Source: a virus
IMG/VR virus record: IMGVR_UViG_3300045988_133018
Direction: 5' to 3' (one strand)
DNA: 36,270 nucleotides
Shown: positions 1-36,270 of the stretch, in pieces
Position numbering within the stretch: position 1 is the stretch's first letter
Layout: the number at the start of each line of letters is the position of its first letter
The notes under the pieces: generated by a model
Database searches by the model: none
Seen by the model: the letters and a program-made list of their open reading frames with translations, nothing else
Told to the model about the DNA's origin: nothing
Position numbers and translations under genes: made by a program

Positions 1-95
1 ATTTTTTTTTGCTTATTGCAGTTATTATAATTAATGTTATACAAATTATTAATGTTATTATTATACTATTCATTTTCTTTCCTTCCTTTAATAAG
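1..95. repeat. Direct terminal repeat, copy 1, identical to 36176..36270. This is the signature of a circularly closed or terminally redundant contig (unit length 36175 bp).
   Basis: Compared base by base: ATTTTTTTTTGCTTATTGCAG...CCTTCCTTTAATAAG is present at both window ends, 95/95 identical. Confidence 0.95.
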
Positions 96-7969: not shown

Positions 7970-8175
7970 TTAATATCATCTCCTAATTTTAATATTTTCT
8001 TAATTTCTTCCAAAGAAATATCATCCCAAATATACTCCCAAAATAAATCTAATTTCCACGCTTTATAATTTTGAGAATAGAAATTGTTCTTATATTTCTT
8101 CAAAGTTTCATTGTTTAATTTTATCACATTTTCTTTTTCTTTGCAAACAGCACTAACCAACATCTTAATATTCAT
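7966..8175 (-). CDS. Hypothetical protein (69 aa)
   Basis: Minus-strand ORF with 4-nt overlaps at both ends. Confidence 0.55.
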   Translation of the reverse strand: MNIKMLVSAVCKEKENVIKLNNETLKKYKNNFYSQNYKAWKLDLFWEYIWDDISLEEIKKILKLGDDIK

Positions 8176-8591
8176 AATTTGACCCTGCTTGTAACAAATT
8201 CCCGTTTAATAAGTAATTTGCCACTTTTCGTTATGTCATGGTCATGTTCTCTTTCAAAATAAATAAGTAAATCTTTTATTCTTTTTAAATTATCAATATC
8301 AATTTTTCTTTTTATATTTTCATCAATCATTTCGCTTGTAATTAAGCAAAATATTTCTGGGTCTATATTTTCTATGATATGTAAATAATTGTGGCTTGTA
8401 TTCTGCCTTAAAATTGCTCCGTTCCAATATAAATATCCTTCGCCAAGTCCAGCACCTTTACAATGCCGTCTTGGAATGATTAAATGATGATAGGACAGGT
8501 CTTGTTTTCGATTAACCTTATAACCTAGGAAGTCATACCCCAATTTCATGATTTTAAAATCATTTACCATTATTTTTGTTATTTCTTTCAT
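8172..8591 (-). CDS. HNH endonuclease, terminase-associated type
   Basis: SYHHLIIPRRH ... NGAILRQNTSHNYLH motif pattern. It is the first gene after a terminator and lies upstream of terS, as in cos-type HNH/terminase phages. Confidence 0.65.
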   Translation of the reverse strand: MKEITKIMVNDFKIMKLGYDFLGYKVNRKQDLSYHHLIIPRRHCKGAGLGEGYLYWNGAILRQNTSHNYLHIIENIDPEIFCLITSEMIDENIKRKIDIDNLKRIKDLLIYFEREHDHDITKSGKLLIKREFVTSRVKL

Positions 8592-9538: not shown

Positions 9539-10135
9539 TTAATCAACCTCATTTTCATAAATATTTCCTATTACTTTCCAAAATTTATTATTACATATTT
9601 GACTGCATTGAGATATTGAAATATTATATTTTTTAGAAATATCTTTTAAAAACATACCTAACTTTCTATCTTTCCTAATCTTACTAACAATTTCAAAATT
9701 AATTTTACTTTTAGGATTATTAATACCTGTAAATCTATCACTTGCCAATTTTCTTTGTTTAATAGTTTGTTTTCTACCATTGCTTCTATAACTATGTAAG
9801 ACATTCTCTTTTGCTGTTACCCATTCAAGATTTTCTAGTCTATTATCATTTCTAATTCCATTAATATGGTTTACTTGTGGTTTGTTTTCTGGGTTAGAAA
9901 TAAAAGAGCTTAATATCATTCTATGAACTAATCTTTTATATTTTTTACCATCAACCGTCAAATATACGCAACAATAACCATCTTTGTCTTTATATTGATG
10001 TATTTCTTTATATTTTCCACTATGATTATAATCAAATGAATATACTTTGCCATTTTTACTTACACCATATTTAGGAAATTCTTTATATATTGTCAAATCT
10101 TCATCATATACTCTAAACTTTATTTCTCTATTCAT
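9539..10135 (-). CDS. Free-standing HNH homing endonuclease
   Basis: NHINGIRNDNRLENLEWVTAKEN core plus a C-terminal helix-turn-helix-like tail. No flanking non-coding sequence. Confidence 0.8.
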   Translation of the reverse strand: MNREIKFRVYDEDLTIYKEFPKYGVSKNGKVYSFDYNHSGKYKEIHQYKDKDGYCCVYLTVDGKKYKRLVHRMILSSFISNPENKPQVNHINGIRNDNRLENLEWVTAKENVLHSYRSNGRKQTIKQRKLASDRFTGINNPKSKINFEIVSKIRKDRKLGMFLKDISKKYNISISQCSQICNNKFWKVIGNIYENEVD

Positions 10136-10924: not shown

Positions 10925-11482
10925 TTAAACATTATTTTTAAATTTCCAAATATATCCACCTGTACTTTTTCTTTTATTTTTACAACAGTTTGAAATATTA
11001 GATATACTTATTCTAGTTTCCTTTTCAATGTCTAACATACAATCCCATTCTTTTATAAAATTTCCATCTAAATCATATTGTAAAATTATTTTTCTAAATT
11101 TTGATTTTTTGCCATATAAATGGTGTTTATTTCCTTTATAATTTTTTGGTCCATGTGGAATACATAAATTATTTTTCCAAGCATGTATTGAATTTTCTTT
11201 ATTAGTACACCATTCTAAATTTTCTACTCTATTATCTTGTTTGTTTCCATTAATATGGTTTACTTGTGGTTTGTTTTCTGGATTTTGTATAAATGTTTCT
11301 GCAACTAATCTATGTATTAAATATTTTTTATTATCTTTAAGACCTATTCTATAATAACCATGTTTTGTTATATAAGGATTTATTATTTTATTTTTATATA
11401 TACTAAATATATCACCATAATCAGAAATATAATAATCATTTTCAAATTTTTGCAATGGTTTCCATATTTTATTTTTATTCAT
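10925..11482 (-). CDS. Free-standing HNH homing endonuclease (paralog of 9539..10135)
   Basis: [23 protein letters not shown] core. Shares a 35-bp identical DNA stretch with the other HNH gene. Confidence 0.8.
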
Positions 11483-15703: not shown

Positions 15704-15829
15704 TTATTTTTTCCTTTCAGCAATAATTGACTTTAAATAAGAACTTAGCGACATATCTCTTTCTTTTGCCTCTTTTTGTAATTGCTCTTTGAGTTCACAA
15801 CTAACTTTAAAGATTATTGTATCTTTCAT
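15704..15829 (-). CDS. Ribbon-helix-helix (CopG-like) protein, 41 aa
   Basis: Hand translation gives MKDTIIFKVSCELKEQLQKEAKERDMSLSSYLKSIIAERKK. GGAGG RBS. It is the first gene after a consensus-like promoter. Confidence 0.5.
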   Translation of the reverse strand: MKDTIIFKVSCELKEQLQKEAKERDMSLSSYLKSIIAERKK

Positions 15830-15851
15830 TTTCTACCTCCTTACACTTAAA

Positions 15852-15880
15852 ATTATAACATATTTTATATACTTTTGCAA
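15852..15880 (-). promoter_or_regulatory. SigA-type promoter, TTGCAA-17 nt-TATAAT
   Basis: Minus-strand reading is TTGCAAaagtatataaaatatgtTATAAT, with the spacer counted as 17 nt. Confidence 0.6.
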
Positions 15881-15904
15881 TACTTTTTTTATACTGTTTA
15901 TATA

Positions 15905-16087
15905 CTAATTTTGTGGATACCTAACTACGCAATTTTCATTTTGCCTTATTACTACTTCTTTATTTTCCAAACTCTTAACATAGTCTGTTATCCATTTTTT
16001 ATACTCTTCTATATTTCTTTTATCTTCATATCCTAGCATTGAACCATTAACTAAATTTGCTAGTCCTATTAAATATTTATCCTTCAT
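15905..16087 (-). CDS. Hypothetical protein (60 aa)
   Basis: Minus-strand ORF in the early region. Confidence 0.5.
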   Translation of the reverse strand: MKDKYLIGLANLVNGSMLGYEDKRNIEEYKKWITDYVKSLENKEVVIRQNENCVVRYPQN

Positions 16088-16275
16088 TTATTATTTACTC
16101 CTCTCTATAAGGTTTATGCGAAATATTATTATAAAATTCGTTTAATAGCAATTCGTAACATTCTTTTTCGTGCAATGTGTTTAAAATGCTTGTAAAAAAG
16201 CTCAATATAATTAAAAAATAGCCAGCATATAACATTATAACTATTAATTTTAGTCAGTTACTCATGTTTATTAAT

Positions 16276-16455
16276 TTATCTTTTAACAATTTCCCAATTT
16301 TCGGGATGCTTAAATTTTTTTAATTGAATATTTGCTTGCTGTTTATCAAATTTTGTTGCGTCAAGTATATTTCGTACATAATGATGATAATTTAATGCTT
16401 TATATTTCTTTAAAAAAGCTCCATTTATTTTATGCCTTAATATATATTTTACCAT
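16276..16455 (-). CDS. Hypothetical protein (59 aa)
   Basis: GGGAG RBS followed by an ATG at 16455, 4 nt after the upstream stop. One residue under the track cutoff. Confidence 0.4.
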   Translation of the reverse strand: MVKYILRHKINGAFLKKYKALNYHHYVRNILDATKFDKQQANIQLKKFKHPENWEIVKR

Positions 16456-16458
16456 TTT

Positions 16459-16716
16459 TTACTCCCTATAATCGTTTAAAATTCTTTTTACATCTTCATC
16501 AATAATTTGCTTTTCTAAATATCTGCTAATAAAATTAGATAATATTTTAATATCTTCAACTAAATACTTGTTTTTGTCAATCAATCTAATATTTGCTTTA
16601 ACCATTTGACTATTTTCTCTTTTCATCTCTCTAAAAAAATCTTTTATTTTTTTATCATTATTTTTTAAGTTTATTGTGCTGGAACCATTTATCAGTTCTA
16701 ATATTTCTTTTTCCAT
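16459..16716 (-). CDS. Hypothetical protein (85 aa)
   Basis: Minus-strand ORF downstream of the XRE gene. Confidence 0.55.
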   Translation of the reverse strand: MEKEILELINGSSTINLKNNDKKIKDFFREMKRENSQMVKANIRLIDKNKYLVEDIKILSNFISRYLEKQIIDEDVKRILNDYRE

Positions 16717-16778
16717 ATTTTATATTAAAAGCTTTATTCCATTTTTTTGTTTTAGCTTTATTCCCCTTTCTTAATAAA

Positions 16779-16994
16779 TTATTCTTTTGTTTCACATTCT
16801 TTTAGTATCCTTGACAATTCTCTATCTTGGTTGTCATTTCTTATATAAAGAAATTTTGATAAAATTTTATAGGGCATTTGTCTTTTTCCATACTCGTAAT
16901 TTCTATATGCTCTCAGTGATATATTTAATAAATCAGCCATTTGCTGTTGTGTGTATCTATTTTCAATCCTATACTGTTTCAATTTACTAACCAT
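16779..16994 (-). CDS. XRE-family helix-turn-helix transcriptional regulator
   Basis: The sequence LKQYRIENRYTQQQMADLLNISLRAYRNYEYGKR is a classic HTH_XRE pattern. Confidence 0.75.
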   Translation of the reverse strand: MVSKLKQYRIENRYTQQQMADLLNISLRAYRNYEYGKRQMPYKILSKFLYIRNDNQDRELSRILKECETKE

Positions 16995-16997
16995 AAA

Positions 16998-17192
16998 TTA
17001 CAAATCCTTTTCTATTTTGCATATTAATAAAATATTGCTAAACAATATTATAAATAAAATTAATATATTCTGCCTATAATCATTTATTGTGACTATTTCC
17101 TTCATTAAATTTGGCAAATTTAGTATTACTATTAAATCAATGATAGATAGCATTAAGTATCTCACCCATTTTTTTAGTCTTATTTTTTTCAT
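16998..17192 (-). CDS. Small membrane protein (64 aa)
   Basis: Two hydrophobic segments (YLMLSIIDLIVILNL and ILILFIILFSNILLI). Confidence 0.5.
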   Translation of the reverse strand: MKKIRLKKWVRYLMLSIIDLIVILNLPNLMKEIVTINDYRQNILILFIILFSNILLICKIEKDL

Positions 17193-17194
17193 TT

Positions 17195-17404
17195 TTATAT
17201 CCTCCTATATTCAAATTCGTACCCTAAATTATATTCCGTTATAATTCCATATTCTTCTAGTTCCTTAATTAATTTTTTTATGTCTTTATGGTATTTTTGA
17301 CTCAACTTATAATGTCTTTCTTCCCACCTGTCAATCATCTCAAGGTAAAAGTCTTTTTCAGCTAAATCATTCAATTCTTGTTTTATCTTTTCTATTTCAT
17401 TCAT
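17195..17404 (-). CDS. Hypothetical protein (69 aa), first early gene
   Basis: AGGAGGAG RBS. Lies directly downstream of a promoter. Confidence 0.6.
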   Translation of the reverse strand: MNEIEKIKQELNDLAEKDFYLEMIDRWEERHYKLSQKYHKDIKKLIKELEEYGIITEYNLGYEFEYRRI

Positions 17405-17426
17405 TTTATCTCCTCCTTACAATACT

Positions 17427-17455
17427 ATATTAACTCGTTTTGAGTAACTTGTCAA
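17427..17455 (-). promoter_or_regulatory. SigA-type promoter, TTGACA-17 nt-TAATAT
   Basis: Minus-strand reading is TTGACAagttactcaaaacgagtTAATAT, with the spacer counted as 17 nt. Confidence 0.55.
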
Positions 17456-17577
17456 CAAAAAAATAAAGAAAATTGCCTGAAAATGAAAACAAAAATAGGA
17501 GTAGGCAATTTCCCTTAATCACTAGGGGTTTTCTAGTGTCAAGTTAATTATAACATAATTATTATTAAAAATCAAAT

Positions 17578-17654
17578 TGGAGGGCAGAATGAGATTTGAA
17601 CTCATGAATACAAATTTTGCAGATTTGCCTCTTAAACCACTTGAGTATCTGCCC
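17578..17654 (-). tRNA. tRNA-Cys (anticodon GCA), 77 nt with encoded CCA
   Basis: The reverse complement folds as a cloverleaf. Acceptor GGGCAGA/TCTGCCC. D stem CTC/GAG. Anticodon stem CAAAT/ATTTG with loop CTGCAAA. T arm ATGAG-TTCAAAT-CTCAT. Discriminator U73, a tRNA-Cys identity element, then CCA. Confidence 0.9.
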
Positions 17655-27960: not shown

Positions 27961-28755
27961 CCTTGTATTCAACAGAGTTCGTTAGGCTCTGCCCGTTCTC
28001 TTATGAACTGCTATATATTTCTATATAGAGTAGACTATCTCTTCATCTCTTTTGAGAGCCTCGCACTTCCACTCACTTGAGTGTACTTCCTTTCGGAATA
28101 GTCGTTACACTTTTTTAGATTATTTCATATAAATAAATTTATAATTTCTCGTTTTTCCTCTTTTTCCAAATGTTCCTTTTTTTTAACATTTGTGAAATGT
28201 TAGAAATATTACAATTAAAATATTTTGCAACATCTTTTATTCTATTAAATATTAATTCTTCACCATTTATATTTATTACTTTTATTTTCTCACTTCTTAC
28301 ACCAAAAGTATTAAATCTTGAATTTTGTTCCGAATAAGTAGCCCATCTTAAATTAGAAATATCATTATTTAATCTGTTCCCATCTATATGGTCTATTGTG
28401 GGTTTACCTTCCAAATTAGGTATAAAATTACTTGCTATTAATCTATGCAATGTATATTTCTTTGATTTATTATTTTTCCATAAATCTATTTGATAATAGC
28501 CACTATCTTTATTAATTGATGGGCTTAATATTTTTTTAGTAATATTATTTTTTATTTCTCCTTTTTTATTAATAGAATAATTTTCATTTTCTTTTAATAT
28601 TTTCCATTCCATTTTACCGCCTCGTTATATCTAATTTAATTTTATCATAAATATAACAAAGTGTCAATAATCTAAACTTAGCACGGTATTGTCTTCAACT
28701 TTGTTTGTTAAGAGTTCCACCGTTTTCACGAGGTTTTAATTGAGCTATTTTGTTA
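27961..28755 (-). mobile_element. Group I intron (about 795 nt) interrupting the tape measure gene and carrying an HNH homing endonuclease ORF
   Basis: P1 pairs exon AAUUGGGU with intron GCUCAAUU, giving U.G at the 5' splice site. The intron ends in G at 27961. GNRA hairpins TTCC-GAAA-GGAA and CTATATA-GAAA-TATATAG. Long-range pairings AGGCTCT/AGAGCCT and CCTCGT/ACGAGG. Exon ligation is in frame. Confidence 0.75.
28139..28612 (-). CDS. Intron-encoded HNH homing endonuclease
   Basis: DHIDGNRLNNDISNLRWATYSEQN core. Flanked by 140-180 nt of structured, ORF-free sequence inside the split tape measure gene. Confidence 0.8.
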   Translation of the reverse strand: MEWKILKENENYSINKKGEIKNNITKKILSPSINKDSGYYQIDLWKNNKSKKYTLHRLIASNFIPNLEGKPTIDHIDGNRLNNDISNLRWATYSEQNSRFNTFGVRSEKIKVININGEELIFNRIKDVAKYFNCNISNISQMLKKRNIWKKRKNEKL

Positions 28756-33531: not shown

Positions 33532-34101
33532 TTAATTACCGTATTTTTCTCTTAAAGCACTTGCTAAATCTTGTGCTTCATTTTCAGGGGCTTTATTTTG
33601 ATGGTCGCCGCCTAAATTGAAACCATTTTGTTGCTTGCTTTCTTGTTCAAATAAATAATCGTGAGTAGTTTTAATACTCTTTAATTGTTCATCTAAACCA
33701 CCAACAACATAATTGCCATCTTTTTCTTCATAAGTTAGTTTTTCACTATCTAGAAGTTTTTCTAGCAATTTAATATCTTTTGCTTTAGAGTTTGCTAATG
33801 CTTTATCTAATGCAATAGATTTTTTGAAAGTTTCCACTTCCTTACTTCCCTCGGCTTTTCCTAAATCGTATTGCTCTTGCTTGATAGCCTCGACATCGAC
33901 TTCTTCTAACTCTTTTATCTTTTCGTTCAAATTATTAACGACACCATCTTTAACTTTTAAGTCGTTTTTCAGTGTGGCTACCTCAGTTTTATGGCTTTCA
34001 ATTAGTTCACCATTTTTTGCCATTAAAGTATCAACAATTTCTTTTCTTTTTGTTTCATCTTCAACAACATTAAGTAATTCTTCTAAAAACTTTCTATTCA
34101 T
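33532..34101 (-). CDS. Scaffolding protein (GP20-like)
   Basis: Highly helical E/K-rich 189-aa protein directly upstream of the capsid gene. Confidence 0.65.
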   Translation of the reverse strand: MNRKFLEELLNVVEDETKRKEIVDTLMAKNGELIESHKTEVATLKNDLKVKDGVVNNLNEKIKELEEVDVEAIKQEQYDLGKAEGSKEVETFKKSIALDKALANSKAKDIKLLEKLLDSEKLTYEEKDGNYVVGGLDEQLKSIKTTHDYLFEQESKQQNGFNLGGDHQNKAPENEAQDLASALREKYGN

Positions 34102-34206
34102 TTTCTTCCCTCCATACGATTTTATACGAGTTTTTCATCTCTTTGAATTTTAGAAAAGTTTCACTTTTACGATGTGATAATCATGGTATATTATCTACCT
34201 GAATAG

Positions 34207-34235
34207 AGTATACCATATTTACTAAAAAAAATCAA
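34207..34235 (-). promoter_or_regulatory. Candidate promoter for the structural operon, TTGATT-17 nt-(TGg)TATACT
   Basis: Minus-strand reading is TTGATTttttttagtaaataTGgTATACT. The -10 overlaps one arm of the 8-bp inverted repeat ATGGTATA/TATACCAT. Confidence 0.5.
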
Positions 34236-34338
34236 ATACACAAAATTAAGAGTAATATAAGAATAATATAAATTATAATATAAATAATTAATAATAATAA
34301 AATAATAATAAATAATATATATTTATATTTTCATTTTC

Positions 34339-34377
34339 CATATGTTATTCATATGTTTTTCATATCTTTAACATATC
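34339..34377. repeat. Iteron cluster B: CATAT(G/C) x4 at exact 11-bp phasing
   Basis: Motif starts at 34339, 34350, 34361 and 34372. The flanking sequence is a diverged copy of 12954..12984 and 13159..13175. Confidence 0.8.
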
Positions 34378-34480
34378 TTTTTTTAAATTCCTTGATTTTT
34401 CCTTATTTTTCAACAAATTTTAATTTTTGAAACAACTATTTTTTAATTTTATATTTTTGAACAAAATTAAATTTTTTTGT

Positions 34481-34517
34481 AAAAAAACACAAAAAAAACA
34501 AACATTTAAGTTTGTTT
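34481..34517 (-). terminator. Rho-independent terminator closing the RNA locus
   Basis: Minus-strand AAACAAAC-TTAAAT-GTTTGTTT (8-bp stem) followed by TTTTTGTGTTTTTTT. Confidence 0.65.
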
Positions 34518-35047
34518 ATAGTAAATATAAATAGGAATTGAACCTATTACAACTAGTTTTAAACGTTAACACACCAGCTATATATTTACTTTGTATCTTT
34601 AATAGATACTGTACTAATGATATAAAGGCTATCTCTTTCATTCAAATACAAACCCACTCCATTGTTGTATCAGGGCGACCATTTATATATCATCAGTACA
34701 CTACCTGTTAAAGGTAGTACCACTACTCTATATTATTCACTTAACACCAACGAAAGAAATTAAGTTTTCATATATTTCGTGTAGACGACTTCGCTCGTTG
34801 TCTAGGGTATTAGTCGTTTTCCCTACCTCTAAAATAAGATTCAATACTTAACTTTGACATGTCAGCCATTAATTCTTTACAAACACAGGATTTTATGTGT
34901 TTTCTTCACATTTCAGTGCCTTATAGACACCAACAGAACAAAATTTAAAGGCGTAAGAAAAGAAAAATAATTAAAGCCAATAAATATTGCTATGTTGCTA
35001 CCTATAAAGGTAACAAGCAAGGAAATTGTAAAAACACTTTTTCCACT
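34496..35047 (-). ncRNA. Candidate large structured non-coding RNA (about 550 nt), class unknown
   Basis: Bounded by a consensus-like promoter and an intrinsic terminator. No ORF of 60 aa or more on either strand. Many hairpins, and their G.U pairs work only in the minus sense. GC is visibly higher than in the adjacent spacer. Confidence 0.55.
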
Positions 35048-35053
35048 ACATTA

Positions 35054-35082
35054 ATTATATCACATTAATTTAGTTTTTGCAA
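35054..35082 (-). promoter_or_regulatory. SigA-type promoter with extended -10, TTGCAA-17 nt-TGaTATAAT
   Basis: Minus-strand reading is TTGCAAaaactaaattaatgTGaTATAAT, starting on the base after the stop codon at 35083..35085. Confidence 0.65.
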
Positions 35083-36162
35083 TTATTTATTGTATTTTGC
35101 AACCCAAGTTTTATCGTAATCAACTTCTAAACCTTTGCTTTTAGAATACTGCCTATATTTCATCTGACTGTTCCTTAATTCTTTTTTCTTTTTTTTCAAT
35201 ATATCGGTATTATTAGTTCCTTTTAATGATAAGATTTCTTTCTTTTTACTTCTAACAGCTCTTGCATAATAATTTTGTTGCTGTCGTTCATTATAATTTT
35301 TTGTTATTTCTTGAATAGTTCCATGTTCATTCCCAAATATAGTTTTTTGCTTTTTGTTGTCAAACTCAGGTCGCCAATCATAATTTACAATATGGTTGCA
35401 ATTAAATTCTTCAGTAAGATATTCATACTTTTTAAATTCTTTTAAACTCATAACAACATCATCAATGGGATGATGGCTAGGACGACAGGTAGGACTATGT
35501 CCTATAACGACACAATTAGCCCCTATTTCGTCGCCAACTTGTTTAGCAATATCATTAGCCGTCTGAGTTAAACTTGTCATTAGGTTGCGTTTAACAGCCA
35601 CTTCAAGAGATGCATTTCTTCCCGCTCTATCTTTTAAAGTTATACCTTTTTCAGCAAGTGCGTTTATAGTACTTTTCATTGCACTAGAATAATCAAAAGA
35701 ACCACTTGCAACTTTAGTATATAAATCATCTAAAGCATTGATATAGGCTTTTTTGCTAAAAAATGCTATTGATTTAGTCATATTCTTTAAATCTTTATTG
35801 GTTCTTCTATAAATGCTATCAACTAGTGTTTGCACTTCTTGGCTTATTTCATATTCAAGCCCCTTAGCCTCGTAAGTTTCTTTATAGCCTTTCATTTGCT
35901 CATTTTGTAATTCTTCAAATAATTGCAGTAATTGTTTCTTTCGTTCCCTAGAAAGCCCATTTGCCTTATTTAAAGCCTCATTAAATACTTCTTTGCCACC
36001 TTGCCTAGCAAGAACTCTCATTTGTGCTTTAGTAAATGAAGATATATCCTCATTTTGTTGTAATTTCTTAATTATTGATGATGTTAAGTCCTGATTTAAT
36101 TTGCTAAAAATTTCAACAACTTTGTTTTTTTCAAATTCACTCATTCTTTGTGGTGTTATCAT
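35083..36162 (-). CDS. Minor head protein / head morphogenesis protein (SPP1 gp7 / Mu F-like)
   Basis: 359 aa. The C-terminal region VVIGHSPTCRPSHHPIDD has the Mu F-like ...RPSH... pattern. AAGGAG RBS. Confidence 0.75.
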   Translation of the reverse strand: MITPQRMSEFEKNKVVEIFSKLNQDLTSSIIKKLQQNEDISSFTKAQMRVLARQGGKEVFNEALNKANGLSRERKKQLLQLFEELQNEQMKGYKETYEAKGLEYEISQEVQTLVDSIYRRTNKDLKNMTKSIAFFSKKAYINALDDLYTKVASGSFDYSSAMKSTINALAEKGITLKDRAGRNASLEVAVKRNLMTSLTQTANDIAKQVGDEIGANCVVIGHSPTCRPSHHPIDDVVMSLKEFKKYEYLTEEFNCNHIVNYDWRPEFDNKKQKTIFGNEHGTIQEITKNYNERQQQNYYARAVRSKKKEILSLKGTNNTDILKKKKKELRNSQMKYRQYSKSKGLEVDYDKTWVAKYNK

Positions 36163-36173
36163 TTAATCACTCC

Positions 36174-36248
36174 TTATTTTTTTTTGCTTATTGCAGTTAT
36201 TATAATTAATGTTATACAAATTATTAATGTTATTATTATACTATTCAT
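36174..36248 (-). CDS. Hydrophobic micro-protein (24 aa), fourth coupled micro-ORF, spanning the circle junction
   Basis: Translation MNSIIITLIICITLIIITAISKKK. Its ATG overlaps the stop of the third micro-ORF. Purine-rich AAGGAAGG lies upstream. Its TAA lies 9 nt upstream of the minor head gene ATG at 36162. Confidence 0.3.
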   Translation of the reverse strand: MNSIIITLIICITLIIITAISKKK

Positions 36249-36270
36249 TTTCTTTCCTTCCTTTAATAAG
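36176..36270. repeat. Direct terminal repeat, copy 2 (identical to 1..95)
   Basis: 95/95 identity with the window start. Confidence 0.95.

Follow-up and report, generated by a model that had tools for sequence, protein, structure and literature searches.

We analysed a 36,270-nt stretch of viral DNA (IMG/VR record IMGVR_UViG_3300045988_133018, hereafter the window), focusing on the interval between its minor capsid and scaffold genes. Judged from the DNA sequence and its relatives, this interval is probably a moron-like, autonomous gene for a non-coding RNA of ~558 nt, a reading we hold with moderate confidence, in which a chain of clamped domains forms a polycistronic unit resembling a transfer RNA (tRNA)-island operon. 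In the predicted order of transcription, the chain starts with a leader hairpin and continues through module 1, element X, module 2 and a tRNA-like element lacking the D arm to a terminator. The parts are as follows.

35054..35082, minus strand: sigma-70-type promoter, with -35 TTGCAA (35082..35077), a 17-nt spacer and extended -10 TGaTATAAT (35062..35054)
35021..35044, minus strand: 5' leader hairpin, GGAAA..(GUG-UUUU-UAC)..UUUCC
34915..35014, minus strand: module 1 (class 1), fold -27.5 kcal/mol, z = -5.3
34719..34914, minus strand: element X, a pseudoknotted domain of ~195 nt between modules 1 and 2
34592..34718, minus strand: module 2 (class 2), fold -35.8 kcal/mol, z = -3.8
34521..34589, minus strand: tRNA-like element without D arm, fold -14.8 kcal/mol, z = -2.4
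34491..34517, minus strand: intrinsic terminator, AAACAAAC-UUAAAU-GUUUGUUU, then U5-G-U-G-U7

The locus is placed between the stop codon (35083) of minor capsid 2 (PF06152, 35083..36162, minus strand) and the start codon (34101) of the scaffold gene (PF06810, 33532..34101, minus strand). An earlier note on this DNA had described the gap as free of open reading frames (ORFs) of 60 amino acids (aa) or more, and the longest ORF wholly inside it indeed has 57 aa; a 109-aa antisense ORF only extends into the gap up to 34153. Every minus-strand frame of the gap has 23-30 stops. When TGA, TAG or TAA was read through, no ORF on either strand was longer than 118 codons. No stop reassignment yielded a coding ORF in the gap, and an alternative genetic code was therefore rejected. 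Decayed genes were also rejected: tblastn with the equivalent-site proteins of Clostridium phage CPQ4, including a 427-aa "integrase", found nothing in the gap, and the HNH protein of relative L014 matched three other window genes, not the gap.

A consensus scan of 33900..35300 returned TTGCAA-17-TATAAT with its upstream TG as the top promoter (10/12), in agreement with the near-perfect promoter reported right after the minor capsid stop codon, and transcription is predicted to start near 35047. Eight IMG/VR contigs have the same 29-nt promoter. Reading further downstream in 7 of them showed module arrays or an array invaded by an HNH gene, and the remaining contig (L127, contig 130501) is closely related to the window. 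The leader hairpin, 81-88% identical in L041, L085 and L074, stands ahead of arrays there too, and its fold by itself is not significant (z = -0.6). The terminator DNA, AAACAAAC-TTAAAT-GTTTGTTT plus a T run (34517..34491), folded at -6.8 kcal/mol (z = -2.8) and was missed by the consensus scan because its stem has just 2 G-C pairs. The terminator variants of relatives (AAGCAGCC/GGTTGTTT and GCAACC/GGTTGT) are compensatory or G.U-compatible and keep their pairing only on the minus strand. The terminator suspected ~550 nt downstream of the promoter thus folds and shows compensatory change in relatives, and the transcript predicted from ~35047 to ~34490 (roughly 558 nt) supports the promoter-to-terminator locus for a structured non-coding minus-strand RNA of ~550 nt that the earlier note had proposed.

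The fold of the whole interval was then compared between strands and with the rest of the genome. The minus strand of 34488..35048 folded at -143 kcal/mol (z = -4.3) and the plus strand at -102 kcal/mol (z = -3.2), the minus strand being better by 41 kcal/mol. Control windows of 561 nt, 20 in all and taken from this genome, had z-scores of +1.1 to -4.2 and minimum free energies (MFE) of -61 to -123 kcal/mol versus z = -5.7 for the target in the same run, so that the interval was the most stable and most atypical among 21 equal-length minus-strand windows. Its GC content also differs from that of the neighbouring spacer, which had been called far more AT-rich, at 0.25-0.35 over 34520..35060 vs 0.08-0.15 in 34220..34460. 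These results demonstrate, at the level of sequence, that 35082..34491 is an autonomous, predicted non-coding transcription unit with the same direction as the phage genes.

The modules share one plan. On the gene-sense strand, hairpin A (nnTAYC-loop-GGTAnn) is followed by the S5' strand (13-16 nt), a variable insert, the complementary S3' strand and hairpin B (GGTGTC-TATAA-GGCAC in one class, AGTATC-TATTAA-AGATAC in the other), with A and B joining the S stem without a linker. The two sequence classes usually alternate, and arrays hold two to five modules. The window has one module of each class.

35014..34997, minus strand: hairpin A1, GTTACC-TTTATA-GGTAGC
34996..34981 with 34947..34932, minus strand: stem S1
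34980..34948, minus strand: module 1 cassette, with a U-rich loop
34931..34915, minus strand: hairpin B1, GGTGTC-TATAA-GGCACT
34718..34700, minus strand: hairpin A2, ACTACC-TTTAACA-GGTAGT
34699..34682 with 34626..34611, minus strand: stem S2
34681..34627, minus strand: module 2 cassette
34610..34592, minus strand: hairpin B2, AGTATC-TATTAA-AGATACA

We assessed pairing of the S stems in 61 distinct modules (24 class 1, 37 class 2) with a junction-anchored register, since the MAFFT alignment of collapsed modules mis-registers these stems. In class 1 and class 2 alike, 93% of the S-stem cells were paired, compared with 22-56% in shifted registers and 58-68% with permuted partners, and none of 500 permutations reached the observed value. 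Most positions showed three or four Watson-Crick pair types across the 61 modules (3-4 pair types per position in class 1), and some S stems differ wholly in sequence and still pair (e.g. CAAAGCACTTGGGG/ACCCCTAGGCTTTG). On the gene-sense strand, G.U pairs outnumbered A.C mismatches by 75 to 8 overall and by 46 to 2 in class 2 alone, giving statistical confirmation to the suggestion that pairs reading as G.U on the minus strand and as A-C on the plus strand indicate minus-strand transcription. Pairing in the A and B hairpins was canonical throughout (100%) in the 60 modules counted, U.G occurring as an intermediate and C.A not at all, while the alternative form, an extended A:B duplex, has a constant G.G mismatch and frequent C.A mismatches. 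The comparison demonstrates that the predicted S-stem helices are under selection on the transcribed strand.

The same hairpins and inverted repeats could instead act as DNA, as the ends of a miniature inverted-repeat transposable element (MITE) or an IS200/IS605-type element, as single-stranded DNA hairpins, as recombination sites or as homing-endonuclease targets, in which case any structure in the RNA would be a by-product. Consistent with this, A+S5' and S3'+B form long imperfect inverted repeats around a variable cargo, the palindromes A and B resemble each other, phages exchange cassettes, and HNH genes are inserted in arrays. An IS200/IS605 or MITE element would be expected in several genomic copies with precise ends, with a Y1 transposase, linked or in trans, and a target of four or five nucleotides. 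In the test for an IS200/IS605 or MITE element, the window held one array per genome, and the strand-biased G.T pairing was allowed for single-stranded DNA. The 32 window ORFs compared with Pfam or PHROGs included no transposase, with ~14 ORFs of >=90 aa outside the scan, and the arrays show no linked transposase or recombinase and no target-site duplications. Their mismatches are mostly G.T on the gene-sense strand (75 vs 8), they bring promoters and terminators of their own and run in the same direction as tRNAs, ROOL and genes, and their cargo comprises functional-looking tRNAs and a covarying pseudoknot, which would be meaningless in duplex DNA. We consider a role as DNA improbable.

Two further assignments of the modules were rejected. 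A hammerhead ribozyme was considered because of CUGAUGA in S2 (34696..34690), which is paired to UCAUUAG and replaced by CUAGUGA in other modules; a hammerhead core should have unpaired CUGAUGA...GAAA at a three-way junction, and Rfam returned no hammerhead match at E <= 10 for the locus. A whole module likewise does not form a cloverleaf with A as D arm and B as T arm, as its 5' and 3' flanks do not pair.

Between the two modules, element X folds into nested and pseudoknotted helices, with a variable hairpin between P1 and P3.

34902..34881, minus strand: P1, AAACACA/UGUGUUU
34825..34803, minus strand: P3, UAGGG/CCCUA
34817..34812 with 34790..34785, minus strand: PK1
34800..34794 with 34754..34748, minus strand: P4
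34766..34760 with 34744..34738, minus strand: PK2

Among its 25 distinct homologs, covariation was measured in an alignment of 20 sequences (A3), counting P3, PK1 and P4. These helices were paired in 98.3% of cells, compared with 32-50% with slid partners, and the covariation score was 0.219 vs 0.134 +/- 0.010 in shuffles, with 0/500 shuffles reaching it. Pairs changed on both sides numbered 3 of 6 in PK1 and 2 of 7 in P4, and PK1 occurs in four to five compensated versions (ACGAC/GUCGU, GCAAC/GUUGC, GCUGC/GUAGC, ACUGC/GCAGU and ACUGC/GUAGU). PK2, which MAFFT shifts by one column in some rows, was left out of the formal count; duplex folding of each sequence showed that it is retained with unrelated sequences. 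The candidate pseudoknot earlier placed at 34782..34825 belongs to element X, whose helices and pseudoknot passed the covariation controls.

Downstream of module 2, the tRNA-like element has two tRNA-type helices.

9 bp, minus strand: acceptor-like stem, GUAAAUAUA/UAUAUUUAC
34547..34531, minus strand: T arm, AUAGG-UUCAAUU-CCUAU

It also has a UAGCUGG D-loop-like segment with the D stem missing, and an arm of 7 bp whose conserved loop of 15 nt (..UAACGUUUAAA..) includes self-complementary AACGUU. Eleven distinct homologs give comparative support to the tRNA-like minihelix noticed at the 3' end, some of them inside clamps (class 1 in L065 and L115; class 2 in L059, L087 and L122). ARAGORN called no tRNA or tmRNA at the locus, and Rfam gave 34521..34589 only a weak tRNA-Sec-like score, 18.6 bits vs a gathering score of 47, with no tmRNA or Y RNA hit for the element. 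A true tRNA (RF00005), which forms a cloverleaf of acceptor, D, anticodon (7-nt loop) and T arms, was rejected, the element having acceptor and T arms and a 15-nt-loop arm and no D stem. A tmRNA, which combines a tRNA-like domain with pseudoknots and a tag reading frame, was rejected because neither ARAGORN nor Rfam detected one. All helices named in the earlier note were located where it had placed them, and comparison with relatives supports three of them: the pseudoknot (34785..34825), both CTACC/GGTAG hairpins and the tRNA-like minihelix at the 3' end. AAACACA/TGTGTTT (34881..34902) is conserved and nearly invariant and hence provides no covariation evidence. ATACAA/TTGTAT (34645..34669) is present in a cassette that occurs only in the window and one near-identical relative.

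To describe the family, we scanned two islands of the interval, the B1 17-mer and the B2 19-mer, against IMG/VR and then read the flanks. The B1 17-mer matched exactly in 42 IMG/VR contigs, and the B2 19-mer in 35 IMG/VR contigs and 72 metagenome contigs. Altogether, at least 60 IMG/VR contigs contain the same modules, as do human-gut metagenomes, and their genomic surroundings differ; several metagenome hits are labelled human gut. In a scan of a genome collection, the B1 17-mer gave 27 hits, 2 of them real (L103 and L104, an uncultured "Tenericutes" contig (UMGS900) and a Bacilli metagenome-assembled genome, GC 26-27%, human gut); the rest were chance matches in unrelated higher-GC genomes.

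The arrays are mosaic. In four IMG/VR relatives with 95-99% identity in the flanking genes, the interval consists of short conserved islands with swapped segments between them, and the domain order is permuted from M1-X-M2 in the window to X-M1-M2 in L031 and M1-M2-X in L055. The inserts are extremely diverse (45 clusters among 69) and cassettes are exchanged between phages; that of module 1 is shared with L103, L055, L063 and L036. Some inserts of relatives are genuine tRNAs, such as tRNA-Trp in L053 and the cassettes of L029 and L045 (42.5 and 48.2 bits, above the Rfam tRNA threshold), so that S serves as an extended acceptor or leader-trailer stem. HNH genes with a Shine-Dalgarno sequence stand directly after the conserved array promoter in place of module 1 in L014 (5174..5515) and L126 (13870..14377), the stop codon of the latter lying in the loop of hairpin A2. 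The HNH endonuclease after the promoter of one close relative is NUMOD4 plus HNH_3-like, and the window has at least three HNH paralogs elsewhere (~28325..28531, 11195..11476 and 9800..10090).

Among 39 non-redundant arrays, 28 have a same-strand hairpin and T run <=260 nt downstream, 13 a strong upstream promoter and 14 a same-strand tRNA within 400 nt. At least three contexts were seen (after minor-capsid genes, upstream of terminase genes, and elsewhere), always co-oriented with the neighbours. Immediately ahead of an A hairpin and modules, L049, L039 and L059 carry ROOL, and tRNAs occupy the position ahead of the modules in L103 and L080. In the three ROOL contigs, tRNA, ROOL and module arrays are contiguous (L049 10625..11313, minus strand; L039 10920..11688; L059 2491..3175, minus strand), and ROOL there has short AATATT-like repeats on its flanks and a 20-bp closing terminal stem, making it look like one more cassette of the same island. 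These results demonstrate that the arrays form an uncatalogued family that is widespread among uncultured gut phages of low GC content, with predicted domains that are modular, reshuffled and linked to tRNAs and ROOL.

The array terminator sequence was seen twice in contig 3300045988_100786 (L003 1..45 and L014 6001..6045), flanking the AT-rich tract, inside which the contig ends; this suggests either a repeat-induced assembly break or a genuine genome end.

Rfam 15 was searched at gathering thresholds, and at E <= 10 for 34050..35150. No match was found in the window locus at gathering thresholds and nothing meaningful at E <= 10, with only chance-level hits far below their gathering scores (mir-1303 25 bits, Lysine 13, SAM-II 16 and others). 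Self-cleaving ribozymes, riboswitches, group I/II introns, RNase P, OLE, raiA and HEARO were rejected for want of an Rfam match, as were ROOL (RF03087), which matched neither at its 99.1-bit gathering score nor at E <= 10, and GOLLD (RF01998), whose model has a conserved 3' domain and which matched neither at the gathering threshold nor at E <= 10. The negative for ROOL is valid on this material because the same search found ROOL at 159-170 bits in L049, L039 and L059. Membership of ROOL or GOLLD, one suggestion of the earlier note, was therefore not borne out; its other suggestion, a possible new class, agrees with the lack of any catalogued family in this search, and the proposed likeness of niche is real, as ROOL abuts homologous modules in those three contigs.

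A single large, ornate RNA with a fixed tertiary architecture, either a divergent ROOL or GOLLD or a sister class, that forms one particle such as a nanocage is very unlikely. It would account for the similar size, the phage and tRNA-island niche with ROOL beside homologous modules in three contigs, and the strong whole-transcript z-score, and AACGUU in the loop of the tRNA-like element could mediate dimerisation. Apart from the absent ROOL and GOLLD matches at E <= 10, the domain order is permuted, close relatives swap segments or carry an HNH gene instead, and no conserved long-range helix links the domains. A single ornate RNA of fixed architecture does not fit an interval whose domain order varies and whose segments are swapped, once for an HNH gene.

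The arrangement of the locus before the scaffold gene raised the question of control in cis. A cis-acting leader, boosting the downstream scaffold and capsid genes by processive antitermination or 5'-untranslated region (UTR) control, would explain a strong promoter, structured RNA and terminator followed by highly expressed head genes, and in L041, L079 and L085 a Shine-Dalgarno sequence with a start codon follows the array directly, so that such a role is possible at loci of the L041 type. In the window, however, a separate promoter (TTGATT-17-TGgTATACT, 34235..34207, minus strand) and a GP20-b-like 5' UTR serve the scaffold gene, downstream genes differ completely between arrays, and the arrays have tRNA payloads and end in terminators in 28 of 39 cases, leaving this explanation a poor prospect. 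The GP20-b-like stretch (34115..34183, minus strand), downstream of the scaffold promoter and directly upstream of the PF06810 gene, is a full-length match to GP20-b (RF03003) that remains sub-threshold (21.6 bits vs gathering 36.2, E = 0.057), and L048 and L077, which are more distant phages, conserve 81% of this UTR segment.

The tract between the RNA and the scaffold promoter (34240..34490, 8-15% GC) contains four tandem 11-bp repeats at 34339..34382 on the plus strand (CATATGTTATT / CATATGTTTTT / CATATCTTTAA / CATATCTTTTT), phased and of the type CATATNTTTNN, and the RNA ends ~100 nt before them. In relative L015, different repeats (TACCCTATCTA x2) lie beside the same AT-rich stretch, and the AT-rich part also follows arrays in L036, L074, L081 and L126. 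Possible roles for the tract are that of an origin and, at the scaffold promoter, that of a phased activator or UP element. The earlier note had offered as an alternative a ColE1 RNA II-like pre-primer or origin-activating transcript for this iteron and AT-rich tract, which would fit the closeness of the RNA end to the repeats, the AT tract with different repeats in L015, and the joint movement of array and AT tract into L036 and L126. A primer of the ColE1 RNA II type extends into the origin, stays hybridised there and is cleaved to start DNA synthesis. Against it, a conserved terminator separates the RNA from the tract, most arrays (e.g. L034, L041, L042, L043, L053 and L103) precede genes or tRNAs and not an AT-rich or iteron tract, and no initiator gene is linked; the AT tract may instead be a promoter-upstream element, since it is directly upstream of the scaffold promoter. 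We give the primer explanation very little credence.

Several observations weigh against the preferred reading, a non-coding RNA gene made of clamped domains. The extended A:B duplex differs little in energy from the three-helix form and is the structure of lowest free energy (MFE) for both window modules, so that the assigned conformation depends chiefly on two features of that duplex, its constant G.G mismatch and its C.A mismatches. The S variants fall into a handful of discrete types, and independent compensatory events are consequently fewer than the cell counts suggest. Strand-biased G.T pairing fits single-stranded DNA structure as well, and both window cassettes are themselves without comparative support. 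Finally, a blastn search with the gap found nothing similar among 50,697 GenBank phage records, so that no cultured phage in that set carries the element.

Under the clamped-domain reading, the locus may work like a polycistronic tRNA-island operon in which the A-S-B clamps would insulate the folding of each payload. The S stalk (13-16 bp) could serve as a substrate resembling the RNase III or Mini-III type, allowing endonucleolytic release, and a cut between modules would leave 5'-terminal and 3'-terminal hairpins for stabilisation. Terminal hairpins are a classical protection against Firmicute RNase J1/Y and 3' exonucleases. The tRNA-like payloads might be released by RNase P or Z type cleavage; tRNA elbow elements are recognised by RNase P, RNase Z and other tRNA-binding factors, and the payload of the window appears to keep them. 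Once free, payloads may work in trans, their targets being the translation or tRNA machinery of the host or defences directed at tRNAs. A role in host-virus conflict over tRNAs or translation is suggested, speculatively, by the extremely diverse cassettes, by a strong promoter of constitutive type and by the tRNAs present, and 45 clusters among 69 inserts suggest strong diversifying pressure, as in such conflict. A bolder version, which we consider possible but unlikely, treats the clamp as a portable RNA display scaffold in an integron-like exchange of non-coding RNA cassettes (tRNAs, tRNA-elbow mimics and pseudoknots, with ROOL beside them) driven by recombination and homing endonucleases, with payloads that would act as decoys or substitutes against host tRNA-targeting or RNA-sensing defences; if true, the locus would be an anti-defence island made of RNA instead of protein genes.

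The first and last 95 nt of the window are identical (1..95 = 36176..36270), an exact direct repeat showing that it is a complete phage genome (~36.2 kb) with either circular permutation or terminal redundancy. The minus strand carries all genes, and the GC content is ~30%. It codes for small and large terminase, minor capsid 2 (PF06152), scaffold (PF06810), an SU10-like major capsid protein, a DnaB-type helicase, Sak4, SSB, an ERCC4 nuclease, several HNH endonucleases and an endolysin; a probable portal was assigned from gene order and was outside the scan, and the 32 ORFs compared with Pfam or PHROGs included no integrase. Reading across the genome-end junction, terminase is followed by the probable portal, a protein of 608 aa and small genes, then by minor capsid 2, the RNA locus and scaffold. 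In CPQ4 (L002, 1927..3951), a cultured relative with 55% capsid identity, the minor-capsid-to-scaffold junction holds other cargo, namely the 427-aa protein, annotated as integrase and resembling a P-loop primase or helicase, and small ORFs; because CPQ4 also carries extra genes there, this junction may be a general cargo hot-spot.

Two further observations concern elements found beside arrays elsewhere. The window has a tRNA-Cys(GCA) (17578..17654, minus strand) after a ~1.9-kb stretch (15723..17577) holding only ORFs of <=85 aa; unlike the tRNA-Cys genes of L043 and L065, it lacks flanking A or B modules. A 139-aa protein (8172..8591, minus strand) is encoded upstream of the small terminase, ~9 kb from the array. 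It has no Pfam or PHROG match, and its homologs (37-68% identity) directly adjoin module arrays in L039, L049, L056, L063, L065 and L069.

To our knowledge, few bacterial or phage RNAs are as large as ROOL and GOLLD, whose context is known only as "near tRNA islands". The present data add that tRNA islands hold a further conserved, covariation-supported RNA layer that can exist without ROOL and that consists of hairpin-clamped modules, a double-pseudoknot motif and a D-arm-less tRNA mimic, none of which is in Rfam. These are new objects for structure determination and for mining of gut metatranscriptomes, the A and B hairpins offer a sequence handle for finding further island payloads, and the idea that island RNAs are made as clamped, exchangeable units is testable.

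Among known systems, ROOL and GOLLD are large non-coding RNAs of phages and prophages, found in tRNA islands (PMC5737381, PMC12286853). The clamp modules are not described in these papers, nor in the main text of an IMG/VR structured-RNA survey. The window RNA resembles both in overall length and niche, and ROOL too is closed by a long terminal stem; the ROOL covariance model of Rfam, however, has 574 positions, six multistem junctions as well as three pseudoknots, whereas the window RNA lacks a fixed multi-junction core, its domains are permuted and exchanged, and it matches neither family in sequence or structure.

Bacterial and phage tRNA-rRNA operons have leader-trailer processing stalks, RNase III or Mini-III sites and RNase P/Z maturation. 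The arrays are like them in having tandem independent domains, each closed by a flank-formed stem, under one promoter and one terminator, with genuine tRNAs in some modules of the family, but differ in that A, B and S are conserved as a portable scaffold and most payloads are neither tRNA nor rRNA. The tRNA-like domain of tmRNA and the bacterial Y RNA YrlA are tRNA mimics; the window element shares with them an acceptor-like stem, a canonical T arm (UUCAAUU loop), UAGCUGG and the missing D stem, but has a conserved 15-nt loop instead of CCA or a tag reading frame. The TMERs of Murid gammaherpesvirus 68 are tRNA-like elements fused to hairpins, with RNA polymerase III promoters and precursor microRNA payloads. 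They are likewise viral non-coding arrays that join tRNA-like elements and stable hairpins in one transcript, but belong to a eukaryotic virus, with those promoters and payloads, and have no homology to the window arrays. By analogy only, integron arrays also hold hypervariable cassettes between conserved, strand-specific hairpin-forming boundaries, with cassettes common to unrelated backbones; here, however, the payloads would be RNAs and not ORFs, there is no integrase, the boundaries enclose each cassette rather than follow it, and the evidence speaks for structure in the RNA. As a kind of locus, phage tRNA-island non-coding RNA is already known. The predicted clamp architecture, element X and the D-arm-less tRNA mimic lie outside Rfam and were not found in the literature available to us, and there remains a real chance that the cassette-display architecture is categorically new.

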